In this document: positions 7,644 to 30,866 of the stretch, one piece after another
Layout: each line of letters opens with the position of its first letter
Position numbering within the stretch: the first letter of the stretch is position 1
From: Desulfobacterales bacterium
GTDB lineage: Bacteria > Desulfobacterota > Desulfobacteria > Desulfobacterales > UBA11574
Length of the DNA: 39,024 nucleotides
Direction: 5' to 3'
NCBI GenBank assembly: GCA_032127815.1
Contig: JAQBHK010000411.1
Location: 1-39,024 of the forward strand
Notes under the pieces: model-generated
Database searches by the model: none
The model's input: the letters and a program-made list of their open reading frames with translations, nothing else
Told to the model about the DNA's origin: nothing
Translations under genes and position numbers: made by a program

Positions 7644-7882
7644 AAGGGGTGCATAAAAACAGTGTAGTCATGGCGTTCATCCCCAATAGTGCTCATCTCC
7701 CGTAGAACCCTGGTTGTACCATCATCTGTAGTTCTCCATCCCCAGCACTATTGGGTCTCTTATTAACTGCTCAATGGTTGGTGGTTCTGTTGATCCAGAC
7801 CTTTATTAAAGGGAACCTAATACTAATCTTGCTTCCCTTTTCATGGCTGACAGATGCAGATGAGACCATGACGGTATCTCTT

Positions 7883-10072
7883 TTAAGTCAACTGAAGATC
7901 CAGATTTGTCATTTCTTTTGTTAAATCATAGTCATAGGCCGGATATTCAAAGATTGGGATCCTGGGTTCTGTTTCACTTAAGGAATATCCATAAATTGAT
8001 TCATACTCGCTCACATCTTCGCCCATATTGTCAAGCTGCTGGAGATAATCATGGAGACTTTTAGATTCAATGATGGTGATTTTTCCTATCTTTTCTATCA
8101 TTGGGCTATGCTCCCTTGTGGCATCATGATCAAATTCAAGGATTCTTCTGCCGTCATTGGTAATGCCGATGGTCCTGAAGGTAAGACTCTTGCCGACCCC
8201 CGGAAGATTGAGGACATTCCTGTCAGAGGATAGGAACGGGATGTCAGCATCTGTTCTCAACCGGTCGATGTTATTAACTATATTTTCTGCATTTAAAGAC
8301 AGTTGTCTTAGGTCCGGAAAAAATGTATCTGGCAGAAGTCCGATACTCTTTTCTTCCATGCCTTCCTGAACCAACCGTGCATTGGGTGAAAAAAGATGGC
8401 TATTTTCCATATATCCTTTAACGGTAAATGAATAATAGGGAAGAATCCCGATATCGTTGAGTACTTTTCGGAGTTTAGCCGTATGCCCCCTTCTTGACGC
8501 AGCCGATGTGAAAACCAGCTGGTTGGTTACAATCCACCCGGCTTTATTCAGCTGATCTACACAGAATCTTGTTTCAGGAGTTATCTCCATTGGAGATTCA
8601 AAATGGGTCTGGAAAACAAATTGCTGAATGCCTATTTTTGAAGCTTTTTCTTTGAACTCGGCAAATATGTTTACAAGACCAGCCTGAATTCTCATGGGAA
8701 GATAAACCAGGAGCCTGGTGCCCAGTCTTACCCTTAAGATCTCTGCGTATTTTTCTCCATCTTTTCTTTTCCTATTGGCCCTGCGTTTTCTTTTGGCCAT
8801 ATTATAAATGCTTTGTAAAATTTTTCGAAGGGTTTTATTGGTGCTCATCAGAGAATCACCGCCAGTGATGAGAATGTCCCTTAACTGGGAGTCATTTTCA
8901 AAATAGCTGATAGAGGCTTCCAAGCGTTCGTCAAATGATTTCTTGACTTGTAATTTTTCAAGGTCAAAATTCAAATCACCTTGTTGAAAGCCATACATTC
9001 TCTGGCAGATTGAACACAGTCCGCCACAGGCACGGCCCATGCTTTTTGGAATTAATATGGCGACGTTGGGATATCGTCTGTGGATACAGGTATCTGGAAT
9101 GATCCAGCCTGCAACATTGGGTTTTCCGGGCTCCACAACATCTTCTTTTTCCCAGGCATGAATAGTGCCGAATTCATTGATCAGTTCCTTTGAATAGATC
9201 ATATATTGCCTGATGGCAAGATCCGCACCCAAGGAAACAGGAGAGGCATGGGTGTCAATAAGCGACAGGTAATAGGGGTTGACAAAGAAGGGCATTCCAA
9301 CTTTTTGAGCTTGTTTCAGGTTGTCCATCGTTTCCTTGTCAAGGGAGAACTCAAGCATTTCATTTAGGTTTTCAGGGGTTCTGACTGCAAATTTGAGATG
9401 AAATTGATGATCGTTCCACCATTTTTTGGCAAGGGTCATTTTTTCCTTCTGTGACATCCCTTTTTTAAATCTAAACCGTTTGCTTTTTGTTTTTTTTTCA
9501 TCAATTGTTTTAATGATGATTTTCAGTATCCGAAGTTTATTTTTTTCCCGCTGCCGGATGATATCCGGATCAAGACCTGAAGAATATCTGTCCATCCATG
9601 ATGAAATCTTCAATTTATTTGGTGCAGGATCTATATGCCCTGAAAACTGTCTGAACAGGTGAATCATGTCATAAAAAAAAGCAGGGGTGGCTCCGCCAGT
9701 CCCTTTGCGGGCACATTGCATTAGAATGGCAAAGGGATCATTTTCCACAATTTCGCCCTTGTGATTAAGATCCTTGAATTGCCTGCCGGAATGTTTGATA
9801 TAATCCAGGATACGAATGGCCGCATAATCTTTGGGTCTCAGCTTATCGAGCTGGCTTTTGCCAATTTTTTTTCGGAGATAGTAAGCATTGGCCTGTTTGT
9901 TTTCGGAAAGGATATCTAAGGCCCAGGTCTTCAATCTTTTTTTTGCCTGGCGAATGGTTTTTGAAGTATCGATGATATCGGTAAGATCTTTATTTTCTAT
10001 GAATAATTTTAGCATGAGCCTATATGCTTTTACGTTGGGAGGGATATGTTTTAATTCATTTAAAATTGGCAT
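7883..10072 (-). CDS. KamA-family (lysine 2,3-aminomutase-like) radical-SAM/PLP enzyme, unusually long (729 aa) with an N-terminal extension of about 215 aa and an extended C-terminus
   Basis: WWNDHQFHL, VNPYYLSLID, HRRYPNVAILIP, radical-SAM triad CGGLCSIC (C349-x3-C353-x2-C356), ILITGGDSLMS, PYYSF, and LNLPGVGKS where LAM has its PLP lysine. SD GAGGA lies 6 nt before ATG 10072. Confidence 0.85.
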   Translation of the reverse strand: MPILNELKHIPPNVKAYRLMLKLFIENKDLTDIIDTSKTIRQAKKRLKTWALDILSENKQANAYYLRKKIGKSQLDKLRPKDYAAIRILDYIKHSGRQFKDLNHKGEIVENDPFAILMQCARKGTGGATPAFFYDMIHLFRQFSGHIDPAPNKLKISSWMDRYSSGLDPDIIRQREKNKLRILKIIIKTIDEKKTKSKRFRFKKGMSQKEKMTLAKKWWNDHQFHLKFAVRTPENLNEMLEFSLDKETMDNLKQAQKVGMPFFVNPYYLSLIDTHASPVSLGADLAIRQYMIYSKELINEFGTIHAWEKEDVVEPGKPNVAGWIIPDTCIHRRYPNVAILIPKSMGRACGGLCSICQRMYGFQQGDLNFDLEKLQVKKSFDERLEASISYFENDSQLRDILITGGDSLMSTNKTLRKILQSIYNMAKRKRRANRKRKDGEKYAEILRVRLGTRLLVYLPMRIQAGLVNIFAEFKEKASKIGIQQFVFQTHFESPMEITPETRFCVDQLNKAGWIVTNQLVFTSAASRRGHTAKLRKVLNDIGILPYYSFTVKGYMENSHLFSPNARLVQEGMEEKSIGLLPDTFFPDLRQLSLNAENIVNNIDRLRTDADIPFLSSDRNVLNLPGVGKSLTFRTIGITNDGRRILEFDHDATREHSPMIEKIGKITIIESKSLHDYLQQLDNMGEDVSEYESIYGYSLSETEPRIPIFEYPAYDYDLTKEMTNLDLQLT

Positions 10073-10443
10073 TATAGTTCCTCGTTGTCGCTAAAATTAT
10101 TACCAAAGAAATAAAGAGGGTTGTTATAAAAAGCAAGGACGATATCATAAGTATAAGGATAGGAAATTGCTTTTTTCAAGGAATTTGAAAGTATCAGTCA
10201 GTATGAATCCCTGTATTCAAATTAACCGATAATACCAGGTTTTGAATTGTTTTGGTATCATAAAGTTTTTCTGTCTCTGAGTACTTCATACAAGGGTAAT
10301 CATACTGGAATGTCGGTATATTCAAGGATACCTTTGCGATGTTTACTTGAAGATATGATTCAGGGGTGAGAAACGTTCTCTTCATTGCTTTTTTCATTAT
10401 CCAAAACCCGCTATTTTCAGCCGATTTGGAGCTAAATGCCGTT

Positions 10444-10472
10444 TTGACAATACGATCTTTATTTGGTACTCT
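10444..10472 (+). promoter_or_regulatory. Candidate sigma70-type promoter for the crotonase/ACD operon
   Basis: TTGACA (10444-10449), 17-nt spacer, TACTCT (10467-10472), about 150 nt upstream of the first crotonase gene. Motif match only. Confidence 0.25.
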
Positions 10473-10625
10473 AATTTCGTCTGTCTGAAGCCGGCTGATA
10501 ATTGTTGTCGCATCAGATGCAGCACAATATGTTCTTACTCATTCCCAGCCGTCACACAACTTTAACAACCTCAGTTTTTTTGCTTTAAAAAGGGAATTCC
10601 TATCCTTTTTATGGAGGAAATAAGA

Positions 10626-11396
10626 ATGGATTTTGAGTGCATCATTTATGAAAAAGAGGAAGGGATTGCGACCATCAAACTGAATAGGCCTAAAGTTCTG
10701 AACGCTATGAATAAGCAGTTATGGCTCGACTTTCAAGTAGCACTAGAAGATGTCAAGAATGACCTGGATATAAAAGTTTTAATTATTACCGGGGAGGGGC
10801 GGGCATTTTCTACCGGAGCTGATTTAAAGGAATCAAAAGATAGGGATATAGAGGAATATCGCGAATACCTTTTAGAGCTGCAGGAAACATCGAGAAAAAT
10901 CATCCGGTTTGAAAAGCCAACTATCGCCGCGATTAACGGTTATGCGTTAGGCTCAGGATATGAATTGGCCCTTGCATGTGATATTCGGATCTGTGCGGAG
11001 GAAGCACAGATCGGATCCCCGGAAGCCAAAGTGACATCCTCCGTTACAGGTGGAGCCATGAGATTGATCCAGGACCTGATCGGCCCTGGCAAAAGTAAAG
11101 AACTTCTTTTTACAGCAGAATATATCGATGGAAAAGAGGCCGAGAGGATAGGGCTTGTTAACAAAGCCGTTCCCCAGAACCGACTTATGGACGCAGCCAA
11201 AGGAATGGCAAAGAAGATTGCCGGTAATTCAGCTTTCTCTTTAAAAATGATTAAAAAGGGTCTACATATGGCACAGGGGGAGGCGAGTCTCGAGGCCTTA
11301 ATGGACTTTGAGATTGAGGCATGCTTGGCCTGTGTTTCTACGAAAGAAAGGCAGGAATCTTTAAAGGATTTCGAGGAAAGAAAGAGAAAGCCTTGA
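10626..11396 (+). CDS. Enoyl-CoA hydratase/isomerase (crotonase) family protein
   Basis: MDFECIIYEKEEGIATIKLNRPKVLNAM, GEGRAFSTGADLKE, AAINGYALGSGYELALACDIRI, SPEAK...GGAMRL. ATG 10626 is preferred over 10611 because GGAGG (10613-10617) sits 8 nt upstream. Confidence 0.85.
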   Translation: MDFECIIYEKEEGIATIKLNRPKVLNAMNKQLWLDFQVALEDVKNDLDIKVLIITGEGRAFSTGADLKESKDRDIEEYREYLLELQETSRKIIRFEKPTIAAINGYALGSGYELALACDIRICAEEAQIGSPEAKVTSSVTGGAMRLIQDLIGPGKSKELLFTAEYIDGKEAERIGLVNKAVPQNRLMDAAKGMAKKIAGNSAFSLKMIKKGLHMAQGEASLEALMDFEIEACLACVSTKERQESLKDFEERKRKP

Positions 11397-11482
11397 TCCT
11401 GGTAACTCAATTATTGTTTCTTTTTTAATTTGTTATTTCTGCACAAGCAGATATCCGTATCCAGTATTCAGGAGGGAGTACA

Positions 11483-13618
11483 ATGTCTATTGAAAATATC
11501 TTGAACGCTGAATCTGTTGCCATTGTTGGAGCAACAAAGAGTGAAACCAAGAGAGGCTTCCAGGCCATTAAAACGCTTCTGGATGAAAAATTTGAGGGAA
11601 AAATATATCCGGTTAACCCCAAAGAAAAAAGCATATTAGGCCTTAAGTGTTATAAGAAGGTGTCTGATATCGAGGACCCGGTTGACATCGTATTGATTAC
11701 TACTCCCGCCCAGACTATTCCGGCCATTTTGGAAGATTGCGGTAAAAAGGGTGTTCATGGAGCTGTTATTATTGCTGCCGGATTCGGAGAACTCGGAGAT
11801 GAGGGAAGAAAAAAAGAAGAAGAAATGGTGGAAGTGGCAAGAAAAAACAATATCCGGTTAATAGGTCCAAACACATCCGGCATAATAAACATGAAAAACA
11901 ATCTGAATCTTGTAGGTTTGCATGATGTACCCAAAGGGGATATTGCCCTTCTTACCCAGAGCGGCAACATGGCCCTGACATTGATAACAGAAGCGAGTGT
12001 CAAAAGCCGGAAAGGAATTTCATATTACATAGGCGTGGGAAACGAGGCGGACATCAAATTTCACGAATATCTCGAGTTTTTCCAGCAAGACCCTGATACA
12101 AAGGCCATATTAATGTATGTGGAGGGGATGAGAGATGGTCGCAAATTCCTGCAACAGGCGTATAAGACCACTCTCGAAAAACCGATCATCCTTCTCAAAA
12201 GCGGTCGTTCATCCATTGGCAAAAAATCAGCAGGTTCACATACCGGTGCCCTGGCTGGTATGTCGGAAGTGGCTAAGGGAGCCTTTGAACGAGCAGGAAT
12301 TATTGTGATTGAGAATTCGGATGAGCTTTTTCCTGCAGCGGAGACCCTTTCAAGCCTTCCGCCTATTAAAAACAACAATGTTGCCGTTCTTGCCGACGGA
12401 GGAGGCCATGCCACCATTGCTGCTGACCTTTTAACCGATTTAGGGATAAATATCCCTATGTTGAGCGAGAAGACTCAAACCAAATTGAAAAAGATTCTGC
12501 CCTTTACAGCATCAGTGCCAAATCCGGTTGATGTAGCTGGAGGCACAGATTCTAACCCGGCCATTTTTGCCGAATGTGCTGAAATAATCATGAAAGATAC
12601 TAACATAGGCGGGCTTTTAATCGTGGGTCTTTTTGGCGGCTATGGGATACGTTTTGCTAAAAGTCTCGCATTAGTGGAAGAAGATGCGTCCCATATGATG
12701 GGAAAAATGGTGAAAAAATACAATAAACCAATTATTCTCCACAGCCTTTATAGCGCCAAGAAACCCCATTCCCTTGACCTTTTGCGATATTATAACATTC
12801 CAGTTTACGACTCTCTGGATGTGGCATGCAAATGCATTAGCCTGTTGGCAGAGCATGGAGATTATTTGGGCAGGTATCATGCAAAAGCAAAATATATCAT
12901 GAATTGGGGCGCCAAAACAAAGTCCAAAGGAGAGAAAATAATAAACAGAGCCAAAGAAGAGAACCGCAATTTCTTGCTGGAATATGAAGCCAAGAGTCTT
13001 ATACAATTACACGGTGCATCTGTCTCTCATGATTATCTGGCAAAAACAGCAGATGAAGCCGTTAGCATTGCGAAAAACATTGACGGGGAGGTTGTAATGA
13101 AAATTGTATCCCCGGATATTCTTCATAAGAGCGATGCGGGAGGGGTTAAACTCAAACTAAGGACAGAAGACGAAGTTCGTAAAGCCTTTGACGAGATTGT
13201 CGATAACGCAAAAAGATTCGATGAAAAAGCGGACATAAGAGGAATCCTTGTGTCACCCATGGCCAAAGAGGGTGTGGAAGTGATCATAGGGACAAAAATA
13301 GATGACCAATTTGGTCCGATTATTATGTTCGGATTGGGAGGTGTACTGGTGGAAATTTTACGGGATGTTTCTTTCCGGGTGCTTCCCCTATCGCCAGCAG
13401 CTTCCAAGAGGATGTTAAAAGAGATAAAATCCTTTCCCATTCTGGATGGTGTCAGAGGAAAGCCTCCATGTGATAAGAAAGCTCTTACGGAGTTAATGTT
13501 AATCTGTTCTGAAATTGTCGAAGCATATCCTGATATACAGGAGATGGATTTAAATCCCGTTATTGTCTATGAAAGTGGCCTTAATGTTGTAGATGCTCGA
13601 ATTATTCTGAAAGATTAA
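11483..13618 (+). CDS. ADP-forming acyl-CoA synthetase (acetate--CoA ligase ACD family, fused alpha+beta, 711 aa)
   Basis: CoA-binding start VAIVGATKSETKRGFQAIKTLL...KIYPVNPK; phosphohistidine loop GSHTGALAGM; C-terminal ATP-grasp half (EYEAKSLIQLHG...VVMKIVSPDILHKSDAGGVKL). SD AGGAGGGAG. Confidence 0.85.
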   Translation: MSIENILNAESVAIVGATKSETKRGFQAIKTLLDEKFEGKIYPVNPKEKSILGLKCYKKVSDIEDPVDIVLITTPAQTIPAILEDCGKKGVHGAVIIAAGFGELGDEGRKKEEEMVEVARKNNIRLIGPNTSGIINMKNNLNLVGLHDVPKGDIALLTQSGNMALTLITEASVKSRKGISYYIGVGNEADIKFHEYLEFFQQDPDTKAILMYVEGMRDGRKFLQQAYKTTLEKPIILLKSGRSSIGKKSAGSHTGALAGMSEVAKGAFERAGIIVIENSDELFPAAETLSSLPPIKNNNVAVLADGGGHATIAADLLTDLGINIPMLSEKTQTKLKKILPFTASVPNPVDVAGGTDSNPAIFAECAEIIMKDTNIGGLLIVGLFGGYGIRFAKSLALVEEDASHMMGKMVKKYNKPIILHSLYSAKKPHSLDLLRYYNIPVYDSLDVACKCISLLAEHGDYLGRYHAKAKYIMNWGAKTKSKGEKIINRAKEENRNFLLEYEAKSLIQLHGASVSHDYLAKTADEAVSIAKNIDGEVVMKIVSPDILHKSDAGGVKLKLRTEDEVRKAFDEIVDNAKRFDEKADIRGILVSPMAKEGVEVIIGTKIDDQFGPIIMFGLGGVLVEILRDVSFRVLPLSPAASKRMLKEIKSFPILDGVRGKPPCDKKALTELMLICSEIVEAYPDIQEMDLNPVIVYESGLNVVDARIILKD

Positions 13619-13697
13619 AGTTTCATAGATCTTTGACAAAAAATTGGAATATACCCGAAAACGTAAAATCATGAAAATTTTAAATCGACTTTTCATG

Positions 13698-13719
13698 AAA
13701 ACTTTTTGCAAAAAGTTTT
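13698..13719. repeat. Perfect 22-nt palindrome AAAACTTTTTGCAAAAAGTTTT, preceded by a 9-bp inverted repeat TCATGAAAA/TTTTCATGA (13669-13677 / 13690-13698), in the ACD-crotonase spacer
   Basis: Read directly. The reverse complement of 13698-13719 equals itself. Confidence 0.7.
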
Positions 13720-13754
13720 ACCACGAATAATCCCTGAATAAGGAGTTTTAATCT

Positions 13755-14555
13755 ATGGAATATAAGGAAATACTTTTCGAGGAAAAAGGATCTGTTGCTC
13801 ATTTAACACTAAATCGACCCGACATCCGAAATGCCATAACAGGTGAAACAATCATTAATGAAATCGTGGATGTATGCAATAGGGTTCAGAACAAAAATGA
13901 TATTAGTGCCCTGATTGTCACCGGTGCCGGTTCAGCTTTTTCGGCCGGAGGAAACGTTAAGGACATGCATAATAAGGAAGGCATGTTCTCAGGAAATCCG
14001 GAACAGTTACGCGAGAACTACCGCAAAGGAATCCAGCGTATCCCTTTAGCGCTTTATTATCTGGATGTTCCGACTATAGCAGCAGTCAACGGTCCCGCTA
14101 TAGGGGCTGGTTGTGATTTAGCATGCATGTGCGATATACGTATTGCCAGCGAAAAAGCCCGTTTCGGGGAAACCTTTGTTTCTGTTGGTTTAATCCCCGG
14201 CGATGGCGGAGCATTTTTTCTGCCCCGTATCATAGGATTTTCCAGAGCATGTGAGCTTGCATTTACATGCAGGATAATTGATGCGCAGGAAGCCCAGCGG
14301 ATTGGCCTGGTAAGCGAAGTCACCTCACCAGAAAATCTTATTCAGCGTTGCACGGAAATCGCTTTTGAAATCGCAAAACAACCTCAAAACATCCTCCGTC
14401 TGGCAAAACGTCTATTCTATCTTTCACAAGGAAGGAGTTTGGAGGAAGTGCTTGAACTTTCTGCTGCCTATCAGGCCCTCTGCCATCATACCCCTGAGCA
14501 TGACATGGCTGTAGAGAAACTACTTTCCCAGCAGAAGCAGCAAACAAAAAAATGA
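13755..14555 (+). CDS. Enoyl-CoA hydratase/isomerase (crotonase) family protein, second paralogue
   Basis: VAHLTLNRPDIRNAI, GAGSAFSAGGNVKDM, AAVNGPAIGAGCDLACMCDIRIA (Asp where hydratases usually have the first catalytic Glu), FGETFVSVGLIPGDGG. SD AAGGAG. Confidence 0.85.
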   Translation: MEYKEILFEEKGSVAHLTLNRPDIRNAITGETIINEIVDVCNRVQNKNDISALIVTGAGSAFSAGGNVKDMHNKEGMFSGNPEQLRENYRKGIQRIPLALYYLDVPTIAAVNGPAIGAGCDLACMCDIRIASEKARFGETFVSVGLIPGDGGAFFLPRIIGFSRACELAFTCRIIDAQEAQRIGLVSEVTSPENLIQRCTEIAFEIAKQPQNILRLAKRLFYLSQGRSLEEVLELSAAYQALCHHTPEHDMAVEKLLSQQKQQTKK

Positions 14556-15143
14556 TTAATTGTTAGAGAACTTAATAAGTTAAAAGCAAAACTAAACCAG
14601 CGTTTGGTTTTAAAAAAATTTACAAAGAGGTTGTTAATGTGGAAGTAGAAAATAAAATATTGGTTGTTAAAGAATTGCCTGATGGGTCTCCAGTCAGAAT
14701 ACCTTATTTTATAGAAGGAAGGACATATTCGAAAATTAATCAAGAAATAGATTGTCGTTTCGGAAAATGCGGCTATTTTATATTTTTACGATGACCGCCA
14801 GCCTGTTGATATCTTGCCAAACGTCCAGATATCTAATGATTCCACGCTAATGTGATACTATTAACGTATTTGGATCTCAGTTTGAGCCTTTTTATGAAAT
14901 CCTGCTGTCCCCCCGACCCTGTATATTCATCTAACTTACTGGAAATAAACTTTATAACATTAATACAACTCAAAAAAGATCAAGAATTATTCGGTCTGGC
15001 ATGAATGTTGGATTATACCAATGCAAAACCTGGCCTTTGGTTTCATCCTGTCGCTTAATTTCAACTACTTTTCCAAGCATGCCTGTCACGCCGCAATCAG
15101 ATTTTTTATTTACACATAATTACTTTTTGGCTATTGTGTAGAT

Positions 15144-27823: not shown

Positions 27824-29566
27824 TTAGGCTCCATTTTTTTGTGCTCCCAAATCGGTTGCCAAGATATGTTGTTCAAAACCGGGGTCCGAGGCCTGTACGG
27901 CAGGGGTCAGGCGCCGGCAGGCCTCGTTGCGCAACTCGTAGAGCACATCGGCCACACGAACCCCTTGGGGACAATGTTCCTGGCACTTGTAGCAAGTCAC
28001 GCAATCCCAGACCATGCGGCTGCCGATGGCCGTCTCTTTGAGCTGCAGGCGCATCAGGTTCATTACCTGCTGGGGGGTCAGCTCCAAATCGCGCTGAGGA
28101 TCTTCCGAGACGGCGACGACAGGACACACATTGGTGCAGGTGGAGCACTGGACACAGGCCCAAAAAGTGTTTGGATTGTCTGTGAGCCGCAAAGGCGTTG
28201 CGCGTAATGGAACCTGCGTGCCCAAAGTATCCGGGCACGTCTTGAGGATCTCCGCCCACTGGGGGGCTGAATGGCGACGCATCCAGCCGTGGGCCTGAGG
28301 ATAGCCGTTGCGACTCAAATCAGATGTTGACGCCGCCCACATATCCTGCAAATCGATGCCGGACGGACACCATGCGGTACATCGACCGCAGTCAGTGCAG
28401 ATAAAGCTGCCCTCGGATAAACGTGCTTGGGCGTGGGCATTGCTGCGACCTGCCGCCATCCGGGCGACGCTGTGCAGCTTTTCAGACGGCAAAATATCAG
28501 AATTGGGGATAACTTGGAAAATCGGGCCCACGGCGCAATGCAGCGTACACACCCCGCAATGGGTGCAGGCGTCCAGCCCCAAAGCACGCCGGGTCGGACG
28601 GTTCACGGGTCGATCGGTGGCAGCGCTGCCCAAGGCGCGGCTCACCAGGCTGAACGGAGTAGACACCAAATGAAACGATTTGCTAAACGGCAGCAGGGCC
28701 AGGGCCAGGCAGCCGATCAGATAGTGGGCGTACCTTAAGGCTGTCTCCAGTCCGATAGCGGTGATCCGCGCAGAAAACGGCTTGAGGGCCAAGGCCAAAG
28801 GATAGGAGAGCACGGCCGAACCCGGTCGCGAATGGCATGCCGCACAATACTCTTCATGCTGGCTGCGGCCTTCGTCCAACAGCTCGGGATCGTTCGCAGA
28901 CGGCATCGGTGCAAATGCCACATCGAATTGGGCTGCCCAGTAGGCCTTCAAGGGGGCGATCTCTTTTGGATCATCGCTGTCCATGTAGTCGACCACCATT
29001 TCATCGAACAGAGTCGGTGAAATGATCTGGACCGCCTCCAGCGCCGCTCCGGTGAGGATGATGCCGGAAAGCAACAACAACAACCAACTATCCGCACCGC
29101 GCATGGTACGACGCAGCGTCCGGTTCGCCCGGCGACGCACCCAAGCAATTATCACACCAACCATGACCAGCACACCCAGCAGATTGCGCAAAAACATGAA
29201 CGGATTGAGGGTTGAGGCGTAATCGGGAAAAAGGCGGGCCGTGATCCGATCGTCGAAGACATGCATCAACAGCAGCAAGAGCATGCCGTAGAACAGGGCT
29301 ATGTGCATGACCCAGCGTCTTGGATCCTGGCGCAGGATGTGGATTTGCAGGAGCACTTCCATAAGCAAGGTTCTTAAAAGGACGATCAGACCCCTTGGTT
29401 GCAACAACGCCTTGGCCACAGCACCGAGGGCGCCCAAAGCGCGCTTTGCCAAAGCGGTATCTTCGGCCTCCGGCCCAAGCGGCAAAACCAGCCAACGCCC
29501 CATGCGATACCCGATGCCGACCAGGCAGATGATCAAGGCACCATATGCACAGTAAGTCAGGAACAT
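27824..29566 (-). CDS. Fusion protein: N-terminal polytopic membrane domain (about 5 TM, His-rich, NarI/HdrE/DsrM-like) plus C-terminal domain with four CxxCxxCxxxC(P) [4Fe-4S] motifs (HdrC-like)
   Basis: Start MFLTYCAYGALIICLVGIGY at 29566 (AAGGGA 8 nt upstream, 13 nt after the glpB stop). TM helices contain His (VMHIALFYGMLLLLLMHVF, YAHYLIG). CAACH sits in the TM4-TM5 loop. FeS motifs: CTHCGVCTLHC, CTDCGRCTAWCP, CVQCSTCTNVCP, CVTCYKCQEHCP. Confidence 0.75.
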   Translation of the reverse strand: MFLTYCAYGALIICLVGIGYRMGRWLVLPLGPEAEDTALAKRALGALGAVAKALLQPRGLIVLLRTLLMEVLLQIHILRQDPRRWVMHIALFYGMLLLLLMHVFDDRITARLFPDYASTLNPFMFLRNLLGVLVMVGVIIAWVRRRANRTLRRTMRGADSWLLLLLSGIILTGAALEAVQIISPTLFDEMVVDYMDSDDPKEIAPLKAYWAAQFDVAFAPMPSANDPELLDEGRSQHEEYCAACHSRPGSAVLSYPLALALKPFSARITAIGLETALRYAHYLIGCLALALLPFSKSFHLVSTPFSLVSRALGSAATDRPVNRPTRRALGLDACTHCGVCTLHCAVGPIFQVIPNSDILPSEKLHSVARMAAGRSNAHAQARLSEGSFICTDCGRCTAWCPSGIDLQDMWAASTSDLSRNGYPQAHGWMRRHSAPQWAEILKTCPDTLGTQVPLRATPLRLTDNPNTFWACVQCSTCTNVCPVVAVSEDPQRDLELTPQQVMNLMRLQLKETAIGSRMVWDCVTCYKCQEHCPQGVRVADVLYELRNEACRRLTPAVQASDPGFEQHILATDLGAQKNGA

Positions 29567-29579
29567 GTTTATTTTCCCT

Positions 29580-30866
29580 TCAGCCCAGCATGCGCACGCA
29601 CGCTCGGACAGCCCCATAGGCTGTGGCAATGGCCAATCCGCTGCCGCATTTCTGGCGTTTCCAATCCTGGTGGGCCAGAATGGAGCCCGCGGCAAAAAGA
29701 TTGGGGTAAAGCATTTGTCCGTTTGCATCCACCGGATGGAATTGGCCGTCCACAGCCACGCCGGCCCGGTTGATCGGATGGCCCTCACGGTGCAGCAAAT
29801 CCTTATGGTGCCAGGCTGCGCGATCCTTGGGCTGTACGACGGGCAAATCGAAAATGGTTTCACGAATACCGTGCCTGTCGGCATGCAATCCTTTGCCGAA
29901 AAAACGCCCGCTGCACATGATGGCGCTGCGTGCCGTGATTCGAAAATCAATGTCGGCCCCCCGCCCCACGTCAAACCGCCAGCGCCCGTCAGCCAGGCGC
30001 TGGGCGCCCATGACACGCTGTTGGAAAAAGGGGCGGATTCCCATAGCCGGTAAGCGTTGCTCAAAGATCTCTCGCAAACGCAAACCGGTGACGGCCGGCA
30101 GCATGGTGGGAATTTCAAAAACAGGTACGCCCAATCCTTGCTGCAAATCTTCCATGACGCGGACGGTGCGGTACATGCCAAGCACGGCCGGCAAGCCGAC
30201 GACCTCGGCCGTGCCGATATGCGGACGAATGGCGGCAACGAGCTTTTCTCGACTATCAGCGACATCCAGCGCCCGCGCCATATGCTCGGTGTACAACTCG
30301 CCTTTGGCATCAGGGAAGCCGATGCGTACCGGAATCAGCTCCGGCCAGCGATCGGCCAGACTCAAGGCGATTTGCCGTGCACTGTAACCTTTCAGGCCGT
30401 CAAAGTCCACCAGCAGGCACGATAAGCGATCCGCCAAAGCCGAAGGCCCGCGACGCATGGTGTGCGGCACGGCATAGGTGGGTTTTAGCGTGCCGGCCGG
30501 GGTTAGAACCTCCATGTTTCTTTGTAAAAGTGTAAAATGCGGGTAACCGCTTGTTAATAAAAAAGCCAAAACAATATCGAAAGACTCGCGGATCGAGGCA
30601 ATATCGACAAGAGCATAGGGATGCAAAGGTTCGTCCCGGCAGAGCCGGGTGATGCCTTGCCAGGGATCGTCCAGCACCTTTCCCTGGGCCACCGGATGCA
30701 CACCGAGCAGATCTATTAAGCCGCTGGCAAATCCGATTTCGCCGATGAGTCCCACCTGCACCGTATCGATGCCTTGTCGGGCGGCAAACAGGGTAGCGGC
30801 CATGCCGGCCATGCCGGTACCGATGATCATCAAATCGCAGGTGGTCTCTTTATTATAGGTGTTCAT
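29580..30866 (-). CDS. glpB: Anaerobic glycerol-3-phosphate dehydrogenase subunit B
   Basis: 428 aa. FAD fold start CDLMIIGTGMAGMAATLFAARQG. Positioned directly after glpA. C-terminal ...GSILAHQDW...GSGLAIATAYGA. Confidence 0.8.
   Translation of the reverse strand: MNTYNKETTCDLMIIGTGMAGMAATLFAARQGIDTVQVGLIGEIGFASGLIDLLGVHPVAQGKVLDDPWQGITRLCRDEPLHPYALVDIASIRESFDIVLAFLLTSGYPHFTLLQRNMEVLTPAGTLKPTYAVPHTMRRGPSALADRLSCLLVDFDGLKGYSARQIALSLADRWPELIPVRIGFPDAKGELYTEHMARALDVADSREKLVAAIRPHIGTAEVVGLPAVLGMYRTVRVMEDLQQGLGVPVFEIPTMLPAVTGLRLREIFEQRLPAMGIRPFFQQRVMGAQRLADGRWRFDVGRGADIDFRITARSAIMCSGRFFGKGLHADRHGIRETIFDLPVVQPKDRAAWHHKDLLHREGHPINRAGVAVDGQFHPVDANGQMLYPNLFAAGSILAHQDWKRQKCGSGLAIATAYGAVRACVRMLG

Follow-up and report, generated by a model that had tools for sequence, protein, structure and literature searches.

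The window, a stretch of 39,024 nucleotides from a member of the Desulfobacterales, contains a gene for a large KamA-family aminomutase that diverges from three plus-strand genes, encoding a crotonase (ECH1), a fused ADP-forming acyl-CoA synthetase (ACD) and a crotonase-family protein (ECH2). This locus raises the question of whether the four genes serve a single pathway and, if so, for which amino acid. The original prediction was a route from an alpha-amino acid, through a beta-amino acid and its CoA thioester, to an enoyl- or 3-hydroxyacyl-CoA. The four ORFs occupied the predicted positions, with a divergent spacer of exactly 538 bp, and the motifs ascribed to the aminomutase (NPYYLSLID, HRRYPNV, CGGLCSIC, GGDSLM and PGVGK) and to the ACD (GSHTGALAG) were all present in the translations (Table 1). 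The plus-strand genes were separated by 86 bp (ECH1/ACD) and 136 bp (ACD/ECH2).

Table 1. Features of the aminomutase locus, in coordinates of the window
Feature	Position	Strand	Basis
Divergent KamA-family radical-SAM/PLP 2,3-aminomutase, 729 aa	7883..10072	-	ORF and motifs, NCBIfam KamA, PDB match 2A5H
Crotonase ECH1, 261 aa	10611..11396	+	Pfam ECH_1
Fused ADP-forming acyl-CoA synthetase (ACD), 711 aa	11483..13618	+	Pfam domains and GSHTGALAG phosphohistidine loop
Crotonase-family protein ECH2, 266 aa	13755..14555	+	Pfam ECH_1, NCBIfam PRK09245
KamA DNA module	7670..10292		blastn homology borders
ECH1-ACD-ECH2 DNA module	10607..14560	+	Nucleotide homology borders
Divergent spacer, 538 bp	10073..10610		Between aminomutase and ECH1

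Identity and probable substrate of the aminomutase

In the aminomutase, a core at approximately residues 215–640 lies between an N-terminal helical extension (1 to ~215) and a C-terminal one (~640–729). A Pfam search of the protein gave no matches, and its score against the NCBIfam KamA model (TIGR00238) was 157.7 bits, below the cut-off of 199.2. The sole PDB sequence match, and the only solved relative, was lysine 2,3-aminomutase (LAM, KamA/AblA) from Clostridium subterminale (2A5H, E = 1.2e-14), with which structural comparison by Foldseek agreed (E = 4.8e-10). The CxxxCxxC, GGD and PYY motifs, R134 and the PLP lysine of LAM are held in common; the aminomutase is ~300 residues longer and lacks the zinc-site cysteines (C268, C375, C377 and C380). 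Its key residues are C349/C353/C356, R358, G404-G405-D406, K552, N622 and K628. Loss of PLP or SAM-cluster residues, which would have told against the original prediction, was not observed; the cluster cysteines, R358, GGD, the PLP lysine, K552 and N622 were invariant among 237 distinct family members. The gene is best explained as encoding a 2,3-aminomutase of the radical-SAM, PLP-dependent kind, from a KamA-family branch that is large and uncharacterised.

Among the NCBIfam equivalogs, the best score was obtained for glutamate 2,3-aminomutase (TIGR04368, represented by Eam of Clostridioides difficile), yet this was 120.6 bits against a cut-off of 650; AblA (TIGR03820) followed with 101 bits (cut-off 525), then the arginine enzyme (87.5 bits) and EpmB (63 bits). 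Alignment showed that LAM position 293, which is Asp in all three basic-substrate enzymes compared, LAM itself (2A5H), BlsG and EpmB, is Lys in the 729-aa family (K552), and the Asp at LAM position 330 is replaced by Asn (N622); lysine-, arginine- and EF-P-type enzymes have Asp at both. Lys and Asn are reportedly found at these two positions in clostridial glutamate 2,3-aminomutase, an observation attributed to Ruzicka and Frey in 2007, and we take Eam to carry this pair where LAM has its two Asp. Eam shares the SAM/[4Fe-4S]/PLP chemistry but, at ~420 aa, is without the extensions.

Both extensions were accounted for in a second, ~600-aa family, with which homology spans the full length of the protein (hhalign probability 100%, E = 1.1e-69 over 553 columns, residues 16–697 against 25–618). 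The two families share the invariant Cys triad, Arg, GGD, PLP lysine and the Lys and Asn at LAM D293/D330. Identity between them is only about 31–37%, and the 729-aa family is ~130 residues longer: it carries a basic insertion (KRKRRANRKRKDGEKYAE) following GGD and one of ~33 residues ahead of the PLP-lysine motif, and its C-terminal tail is longer; Pfam Radical_SAM detects the ~600-aa family but not the 729-aa family. Fusions of the ~600-aa family to DnaJ/archaemetzincin and TetR domains also exist. We take this family to be the methanogen-type glutamate 2,3-aminomutase (MmarC7_1783); Tunckanat et al. reportedly established in 2022 that the KamA homologue of Methanococcus maripaludis, with an N-terminal extension of ~160 aa, is such an enzyme. 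Methanotorris igneus, in which beta-glutamate accumulates (PMC1224877), has a member of the ~600-aa family (P0499). Because K552 and N622 replace the Asp pair of LAM, and given the end-to-end homology with the ~600-aa family, the enzyme probably acts on an acidic alpha-amino acid, L-glutamate being the likeliest, and forms beta-glutamate.

Genomic context of the aminomutase and its neighbours

Members of the 729-aa family occur in the genomes of at least 577 species, some of them Bacteroidales of the human gut. Outside the Desulfobacteraceae clade, the long KamA gene had no conserved neighbour among over 120 loci, drawn from Bacteroidota, Gemmatimonadota, Planctomycetota, Nitrospinota, Myxococcota, Aminicenantes and the human gut; the KamA homologue was also solitary in M. 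igneus and Parabacteroides distasonis, and the ~600-aa family is likewise typically a solitary gene. Since there is no conserved partner outside one clade, a CoA pathway cannot be the general context of the family. In most lineages the aminomutase appears to work alone, presumably as a source of beta-glutamate, whether solute or metabolite.

Within the clade, of 23 distinct loci that could be evaluated, 8 had a crotonase-ACD pair next to the long KamA gene (the window, L005, L008, L013, L093, L095, L101 and L107). Five of these (L005, L008, L095, L101 and L107) were tight, co-directional crotonase-ACD-KamA operons with 12–15 nt between ACD and KamA; L013 was a sixth co-directional locus, with a gap of 102 nt, while L093 was divergent like the window and its KamA DNA was 95% identical to the window's. 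The flanks beyond this triple varied between loci. In L010 and L016, genes for glutamine synthetase and a C-N hydrolase lay directly upstream of KamA on the same strand; glutamine synthetase converts beta-glutamate to beta-glutamine in Methanohalophilus (PMC1224877).

The identification of the plus-strand genes as a crotonase, a fused ACD and a second crotonase with Asp at the first catalytic Glu was borne out by Pfam and by alignment of catalytic residues. The two small ORFs matched Pfam ECH_1 with 196 and 177 bits. ECH1 keeps both catalytic Glu (GYE...SPE) and has an unusual loop (SPEAKVTSSVTGGA) common to all ACD-paired crotonases; its best solved relatives were short-chain enoyl-CoA hydratase and 3-hydroxypropionyl-CoA dehydratase (5ZAI). 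In ECH2 the two catalytic positions are occupied by Asp and Glu, in that order (GCD...GET), and the protein belongs to the PRK09245 subfamily (370.9 bits, cut-off 354). The ACD contains CoA_binding_2, Succ_CoA_lig and ATP-grasp_5 domains, and its best NCBIfam models were 4-hydroxybutyrate-, acetate- and 3-hydroxypropionate-CoA ligases. It has the same domain order as the ligases of the thaumarchaeal 3-hydroxypropionate/4-hydroxybutyrate cycle (NF045493 aligns with residues 5–709 of 711), which resemble it also in having a short-chain crotonase as neighbour. However, scores of 487–530 bits against NF045493/NF045492 (cut-offs 1200–1300) mean that it is not an equivalog, and the host here is a bacterial sulfate reducer with no autotrophic-cycle context.

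ACDs linked to KamA formed a clade of their own, with 84–93% mutual identity and 64–69% identity to all other ACDs. The window's ACD falls not in this clade but in a 'general' one; ECH1 likewise shares 94% identity with the general type and 74–77% with the KamA-linked type. In the general-clade contexts checked (L083, L088, L089, L090/L091 and L172), the ECH-ACD pair had no KamA gene nearby and its neighbours varied between loci. ECH2 followed only some of the general-type pairs and was never found in KamA-linked sets. A crotonase-ACD pair was also absent from the evaluable loci of the window's closest KamA relatives (L015, L092 and L094; 96–98% nucleotide identity). The expected co-conservation of long KamA with ACD and crotonases was found, for the pair, within the clade; it extended neither to other phyla nor to the second crotonase.

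The description of the block as AT-rich held at synonymous sites: GC3 was 0.42, 0.45, 0.41 and 0.40 for the aminomutase, ECH1, ACD and ECH2, compared with 0.53–0.58 for parE/parC on the left and 0.47–0.70 for almost every gene to the right. A gene at 1769–2554, far to the left in the window, was as AT-rich as the block. The bracketing spacers had been thought to contain gene debris, but ten ORFs within them had no Pfam match at E ≤ 1, and apart from short extensions of the KamA block the spacers matched none of the sequences fetched. The block is mosaic, combining two DNA modules found separately elsewhere. One consists of the KamA gene with ~210 nt downstream and ~220 nt upstream, and recurs, 94–98% identical at the nucleotide level, in unrelated contexts (L001, L002, L015, L092, L093, L094 and L105). 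The other, ECH1-ACD-ECH2, shares 93.4% identity with L081/L082 and 81% with L084/L085, and its homology extends from 4 nt ahead of the ECH1 ATG to 5 nt past the ECH2 stop; it appears to have been brought into the window as a separate low-GC block. The junction between them (10293–10606, 314 nt) matched no fetched sequence. A 21-nt inverted repeat lies at the module borders (10155–10175/10587–10607), and a sigma-70-like promoter for the aminomutase is predicted inside the spacer, on the minus strand (10179–10150).

A candidate beta-glutamyl-CoA route and its alternatives

The reading tentatively preferred, at somewhat less than even confidence, is that a glutamate-type aminomutase and a CoA-dependent ACD/crotonase route link glutamate to glutaconyl-CoA in this clade. 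The aminomutase would convert L-glutamate to beta-glutamate, the ACD would interconvert beta-glutamate and beta-glutamyl-CoA, and a crotonase would act at C2/C3 of the thioester, eliminating or adding NH3 to give glutaconyl-CoA; alternatively, the crotonase might hydrate glutaconyl-CoA. The predicted pathway was partly supported by the clade pairing, but is better written with these glutamate-derived intermediates. The kamA-kamDE-kdd-kce-kal cluster is alike in passing from an aminomutase to reactions of CoA thioesters, the last of which eliminates NH3 from a 3-aminoacyl-CoA. As originally noted, kamDE, kdd, kce and kal were not seen in the window by inspection; lysine fermentation is the wrong frame for comparison, because the residues that bind the side chain point to an acidic substrate, for example glutamate. 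Here an ADP-forming synthetase would provide the entry to CoA thioesters, a crotonase-fold protein is the candidate lyase or hydratase, and the substrate is probably glutamate. ACDs often run toward acid and ATP, which counts against the route. The proposed crotonase chemistry resembles that of beta-alanyl-CoA ammonia-lyase (Acl) and 3-aminobutyryl-CoA ammonia-lyase (Kal), which reversibly eliminate NH3 from 3-aminoacyl-CoA, but no homologue of either was present here; neither Acl nor Kal is known to have the crotonase fold, nor are other beta-aminoacyl-CoA ammonia-lyases. To our knowledge no crotonase-fold C-N lyase has been described, and the ordinary hydratase Glu/Glu pair of ECH1 is a point against the route. 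Formation of beta-glutamate from glutaconyl-CoA and NH3 via beta-glutamyl-CoA was proposed earlier, the enzymes not being identified (PMC1224877), and amination of glutaconyl-CoA has been suggested only as a possible promiscuous reaction (bioRxiv 10.1101/2025.11.21.689712).

A credible, if rather doubtful, competitor is that the juxtaposition in the window is incidental: a stand-alone synthase of beta-glutamate or another beta-amino acid, its product being for example a compatible solute, was joined by horizontal transfer into a low-GC island with a general short-chain acyl-CoA/acid module. That module could act on crotonate, 3-hydroxybutyrate, 3-hydroxypropionate or acrylate, or convert acyl-CoA to acid and ATP, and the closest solved relatives of ECH1 and the ACD models are consistent with this. 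The sharp, independent borders of the two blocks, the general ECH-ACD pairs with variable neighbours and the solitary KamA genes of other lineages also favour it, and many source samples were marine, soda-lake or hypersaline, although the presence of the family in human-gut Bacteroidales weakens a purely osmolyte role. Against it, ECH-ACD adjoins KamA in seven other clade loci, in two orientations and with both paralogous ACD clades, where chance adjacency of two given modules in a genome of ~4000 genes would be of the order of 0.1% per locus; L093, moreover, shares the divergent layout. That same layout, found independently, argues against the window being an assembly chimera of contigs from two populations joined inside the spacer, as does the junction, which is unique sequence rather than a shared repeat open to mis-joining. 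Such a chimera is very improbable, even though the arrangement was a singleton among the 23 loci and each block matched different MAG contigs at 93–98%.

The remaining alternatives concern the substrate. A basic or neutral (beta-lysine-type) pathway using both crotonases, as a rewired analogue of lysine fermentation, is what the original prediction implies if taken literally. The KamA-family core, the adjoining ACD and two crotonases, and the lack of KamDE-, Kdd-, Kce- or Kal-like ORFs among those of at least 150 aa in the window (by inspection) agree with it; but the Asp pair that binds the side chain in LAM is invariably replaced by Lys552 and Asn622, the lowest scores were those of the lysine, arginine and EpmB models, and ECH2 is missing from every KamA-linked set, making it highly unlikely. 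Another anionic substrate (2-aminoadipate, cysteate or a phospho-amino acid), or peptide- or protein-bound glutamate, is unlikely to a lesser degree; the N- and C-terminal extensions would then serve to recognize the substrate, and the ECH-ACD link would not concern beta-glutamate. K552 is compatible with any anionic group, and the ~300 residues beyond the KamA core are conserved with 56–58% identity across phyla. The N-terminal domain was modelled confidently (pLDDT 79.6) and had no relative by Foldseek (best E = 1.1), PDB profile (best E = 0.17) or Pfam (none); the sister-family fusions also point this way. Conversely, the extensions are common to the ~600-aa family, including that of a beta-glutamate-accumulating methanogen, and R358, which binds the alpha-carboxylate of free amino acids, does not vary.

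For the window itself, coupling of the aminomutase to the preferred beta-glutamyl-CoA route is plausible by analogy, with less certainty than for its relatives' tight operons, because its partner is a common module, brought in separately, rather than the dedicated paralogue. For the clade, which appears repeatedly to have kept the aminomutase beside a crotonase and an ADP-forming acyl-CoA synthetase, a CoA-dependent route is the most economical reading; it would tie glutamate to glutaconyl-CoA and crotonyl-CoA metabolism, in one direction or the other. The frequency of this pairing among related sulfate reducers suggests a CoA-dependent beta-glutamate pathway that can be tested.

The aminomutase and its active site

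The four open reading frames of the locus were found where the original prediction had placed them, with a divergent spacer of 538 bp, and every motif it had quoted was present in the translations (see the table of features). The 729-aa protein scored 157.7 bits against the NCBIfam KamA model (TIGR00238), below the cut-off of 199.2, and produced no Pfam-A match at E<=0.01, neither to Radical_SAM nor to LAM_C; its sole Pfam match was Fer4_12 (E 0.025), with the core alone as query. Domain-based annotation pipelines will miss this protein. A search of PDB sequences returned lysine 2,3-aminomutase (LAM; 2A5H) as the only solved relative and, judged by alignment, the protein is a divergent KamA branch whose homology is nonetheless secure. 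The full-length AlphaFold model was of unusable quality (pLDDT 54), and 2A5H was the sole Foldseek match obtained with it. The N-terminal extension was modelled as a helical domain (pLDDT 79.6) for which neither fold nor profile search of the PDB gave a relative, which would make it novel.

Residues were mapped by aligning the 729-aa protein with 2A5H, BlsG (arginine 2,3-aminomutase) and E. coli EpmB. The CxxxCxxC motif for [4Fe-4S]/SAM (C349/C353/C356) corresponded to LAM C125/C129/C132, K628 aligned with the PLP-binding LAM K337, the SAM motif G404-G405-D406 was retained, and R358 was the carboxylate-binding Arg. The SAM-cluster and PLP residues that had been recognised from motifs therefore survive proper alignment. 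The protein differs from lysine 2,3-aminomutase (KamA/AblA) at both lysine-binding Asp of 2A5H: Lys552 occupies the position of D293, where all three basic-substrate enzymes (LAM, BlsG and EpmB) have Asp, and Asn622 occupies that of D330. The Cys triad, R358, GGD, K628, K552 and N622 were invariant in 237 distinct family members. The zinc site of LAM was also altered, C268 being replaced by Arg while C375, C377 and C380 had no counterpart. The lysine 2,3-aminomutase equivalog (TIGR03820) was not reached (101.1 bits against a cut-off of 525.4); the best equivalog was clostridial glutamate 2,3-aminomutase (TIGR04368) at 120.6 bits, but its cut-off is 650.

According to Lepore and colleagues in 2005, D293 and D330 of LAM reportedly bind the epsilon-ammonium group of lysine, while the clostridial glutamate 2,3-aminomutase Eam is said, after Ruzicka and Frey in 2007, to have a Lys/Asn pair (K332, N369). 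K552/N622 is presumably the equivalent of this pair; a tblastn search of plasmids for an Eam sequence found only AblA, BlsG and EpmB. The substrate pocket of the 729-aa family is non-basic and probably acidic.

Distribution of the long family and its relatives

Full-length relatives of ~705-745 aa were abundant. The long KamA was present in at least 577 species-representative genomes, from lineages including Desulfobacterales, Bacteroidota, Gemmatimonadota, Planctomycetota, Nitrospinota, Myxococcota, Aminicenantes and Ignavibacteria, and on 260 metagenome stretches, many of them human-gut contigs. Among cultured gut Bacteroidales it occurred in Parabacteroides distasonis (WP_009275016.1; on NZ_OY725748.1, locus L175), Phocaeicola massiliensis and Bacteroides finegoldii. 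In gut Bacteroidales and metagenome loci (L175, L130-L171) the ~700-aa gene had a response regulator or hybrid kinase and TonB-dependent receptors as neighbours. One Bacteroidales chromosome (CP070687.1, L028) carried tandem full-length paralogues of 729 and 727 aa, 61% identical and both with TVKG and NLPxVGK motifs. Full-length identity between phyla was 56-58%. The G-C content of the gene tracked that of the host across phyla (mean difference 0.002), which argues for long residence in these hosts and also disfavours a mobile or defence role for the solitary gene.

The next relatives, identified by exhaustive search of 1.84 billion representatives, were proteins of ~600 aa at 33-37% identity. 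Unlike the 729-aa protein, this sister family is detected by PF04055; it passes the KamA cut-off, matches no equivalog, and has the same Lys and Asn, also invariant. The two families formed separate clusters at 31-37% identity, below orthologue-level similarity, yet the ~600-aa proteins have a homologous N-terminal extension before the KamA core: hhalign of the two family alignments matched residues 16-697 to 25-618, both extensions included, with a probability of 100% (E 1.1e-69), and the motifs FF.(D/E)M..LF and RYPSGLD...R..N..RI were common to both. A KamA homologue of Methanococcus maripaludis with a ~160-residue N-terminal extension is, reportedly from the work of Tunckanat and colleagues in 2022, a glutamate 2,3-aminomutase, and the ~600-aa group is likely to be its family. 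Two fusions were observed in the group, one joining a DnaJ domain, the KamA core and an archaemetzincin-like domain (P0344, 1357 aa) and the other placing a TetR-family regulator N-terminal to the core (P0374, 822 aa). The group also includes a protein of Methanotorris igneus, an organism that accumulates beta-glutamate (PMC1224877). From these comparisons, the window's aminomutase is intact, strongly conserved, and homologous over its whole length to a family associated with producers of beta-glutamate.

Gene neighbourhoods and the composition of the window

The long KamA is basically a solitary gene, like that of M. igneus. No neighbour cluster occurred in more than 7 of 80 genome loci, no Pfam family in more than 6 of the 124 proteins upstream of them, and 80 metagenome loci had no metabolic partner in common beyond closely related contigs. 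PADLOC gave no matches, so that a role in anti-phage defence was rejected, as was a mobile cassette, since homology breakpoints differed between genomes and had no fixed end. An M24 peptidase neighbouring both a KamA (locus L092) and a crotonase-ACD pair (L083) was discounted, the two proteins being 22% identical and not orthologues. Riboswitch control (Na+ or c-di-AMP) has been reported for ablA and eam; it was rejected here because no Rfam family reached its gathering score anywhere in the window.

The exception was the Desulfobacteraceae clade of the window's KamA gene (76-98% protein identity), where KamA is repeatedly kept beside a crotonase (ECH) and an ADP-forming acyl-CoA synthetase (ACD). 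Such a pair adjoined KamA in 8 of 23 distinct clade loci with enough upstream sequence, the window being one. Five of these (L005, L008, L095, L101 and L107) had ECH-ACD-KamA on one strand with a gap of 12-15 nt between ACD and KamA; L013 was likewise co-directional and in this order, its gap being 102 nt, and L093 was divergent, as in the window. Flanks beyond the triple differed between loci, and linked loci were scattered over the KamA similarity range of the clade rather than forming one tip group. The expected co-occurrence of KamA with an ACD and two crotonases was seen, for one crotonase and the ACD, in 8 of the 23 loci of this clade and was not seen in other phyla; the second crotonase was in none of the KamA-linked sets. 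In L005, a three-subunit xanthine-dehydrogenase-family molybdoenzyme (MoCoBD, 2Fe-2S and FAD subunits) and a distant crotonase lay directly upstream of the triple on the same strand. Two Desulfobacula MAGs (L010, L016) had a C-N hydrolase and a glutamine synthetase directly upstream of KamA and co-directional with it, reminiscent of Methanohalophilus, in which glutamine synthetase converts beta-glutamate to beta-glutamine (PMC1224877).

Coordinates of features in the window and in comparison loci (L-numbers)
Feature	Location	Coordinates	Strand	Details
KamA-family ORF	window	7883..10072	-	729 aa
ECH1 crotonase	window	10611..11396	+	261 aa; Pfam ECH_1 196 bits
ACD	window	11483..13618	+	711 aa; Pfam CoA_binding_2 86.9, Succ_CoA_lig 155.9, ATP-grasp_5 258.6 bits
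ECH2 crotonase	window	13755..14555	+	266 aa; Pfam ECH_1 177 bits
KamA homology block	window	~7670-10292		
ECH1-ACD-ECH2 homology block	window	10607-14560		
Inverted repeat	window	10155-10175 / 10587-10607		21 nt
Overlapping ORF	window	27824..30310	-	828 aa
Overlapping ORF	window	29580..30866	-	428 aa
Bac_GDH neighbour	L081	3729-6602		
Bac_GDH neighbour	L082	4281-4910		
Bac_GDH neighbour	L172	3919-5946		
C-N hydrolase, glutamine synthetase	L010	609-3082		
C-N hydrolase, glutamine synthetase	L016	7455-9875		
Molybdoenzyme, distant crotonase	L005	2382-6845		
Long KamA	L175	5677-7791		
Tandem KamA paralogues	L028	10001-12190 and 12385-14568		

Both small open reading frames of the locus were crotonases by Pfam, as predicted, and the 711-aa frame was a fused ACD with CoA-binding, succinyl-CoA-ligase-like and ATP-grasp domains in a single chain and the phosphohistidine loop GSHTGALAG; it reached no NCBIfam equivalog cut-off. 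ECH1 retained both catalytic Glu (in GYE and SPE, which match the Glu pair of crotonase 5Z7R on alignment). ECH2 has the crotonase fold but, with Asp for the first catalytic Glu and Glu at the second position, falls outside the enoyl-CoA hydratase type.

The ACDs linked to KamA formed their own clade (84-93% identity among themselves, 64-69% to all others). The window ACD was 96% identical to a protein (P0123) of the paralogous 'general' clade and stands outside the KamA-linked type. The general ECH-ACD pair, in some cases with ECH2 after it, was very common in Desulfobacterales, and in L081-L085, L088-L091, L172 and L173 it had other neighbours and no aminomutase beside it; in L172 the divergent neighbour of ECH1 was a glycosyltransferase, not KamA. 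The blocks most closely related to ECH1-ACD(-ECH2) of the window had a large NAD-specific glutamate dehydrogenase (Bac_GDH) convergent and immediately downstream, where the window has instead a spacer of 588 bp and a UbiE-like methyltransferase. ACD-paired crotonases of both clades were 74-94% identical and shared an unusual loop that follows their second catalytic Glu; the general and KamA-linked pairs probably perform the same chemistry.

The window was a mosaic at the DNA level. Its KamA block matched, at 94-98% identity, contigs whose flanks were entirely different. The ECH1-ACD-ECH2 block shared 93% identity with L081/L082, and its borders lay 4 nt ahead of the start of ECH1 and 5 nt past the stop of ECH2. 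The 314 nt between the blocks matched nothing among the sequences fetched for comparison. An inverted repeat, its arms 86% complementary and 411 nt apart, bracketed the spacer and coincided with the points at which homology ends for the KamA block (L001, L092 and L094) and for the trio block (L082); it could be due to chance or be a remnant of the recombination by which the blocks came together. L093 had the layout of the window and 95% identical KamA DNA, but an ECH-ACD pair of the KamA-linked type (66-71% nucleotide identity), which suggests replacement of one paralogous pair by the other. The nearest KamA relatives of the window that could be evaluated (L015, L092 and L094) were without an ECH-ACD pair.

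The AT-rich island was confirmed, GC3 being 0.40-0.45 in the four genes against 0.53-0.58 in parE/parC to the left and 0.47-0.70 in nearly all genes to the right. Spacer frames had no Pfam match, and the gene debris supposed to bracket the island was not recovered. Elsewhere, in the high-GC glycerol-3-phosphate dehydrogenase region, frames of 828 and 428 aa overlapped by ~730 nt and long antisense frames were also present; the overlap may come from a frameshift or from frames drawn too long in GC-rich DNA.

A candidate beta-glutamate pathway

The beta-amino-acid pathway of the original prediction was supported in part, and is here re-centred on glutamate and beta-glutamate. The aminomutase would interconvert glutamate and beta-glutamate, the ACD would interconvert beta-glutamate and beta-glutamyl-CoA, and the crotonase would interconvert beta-glutamyl-CoA and glutaconyl-CoA (plus NH3), or else hydrate glutaconyl-CoA. 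In the searchable literature the beta-glutamyl-CoA steps are only proposed and none is assigned to genes, nor was any paper found there describing the ~700-aa aminomutase family; to our knowledge, the glutamate 2,3-aminomutases described so far are of only two kinds. In Desulfobacula-like sulfate reducers the ECH-ACD-KamA operons, and by analogy the window, could encode an undescribed CoA-dependent beta-glutamate pathway, comprising a glutamate 2,3-aminomutase of a new, 700-aa class, an ADP-forming synthetase and a crotonase-fold C-N lyase, although we consider this unlikely. The Glu/Glu pair of ECH1 is that of an ordinary hydratase, a weak point for the putative lyase role.

The main rival explanation is that the adjacency of these genes in the window is incidental, within a horizontally acquired low-GC island. 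For the window trio, which is of the general type and not the dedicated KamA-linked paralogue, a role with the aminomutase is less certain than in the operons. The pairing of ECH-ACD with KamA recurs in the clade loci counted here, the window among them, which argues against coincidence.

The locus is a variant of KamA-family aminomutase, ACD and crotonase rather than a new category, and it exposes a large family together with a candidate pathway. The active-site signature of this widespread ~700-aa family predicts an acidic substrate, and the recurrent operon supplies specific candidates for the enzymes of the missing CoA-dependent steps. If the CoA-dependent pathway is real, anaerobes would have, beside the methylaspartate and 2-hydroxyglutarate pathways, a third way of getting from glutamate to glutaconyl-CoA/crotonyl-CoA; this class of aminomutase would produce beta-glutamate in many of them, human-gut Bacteroidales included, and would be an added source of this compound (3-aminoglutarate) in sediments and the gut.
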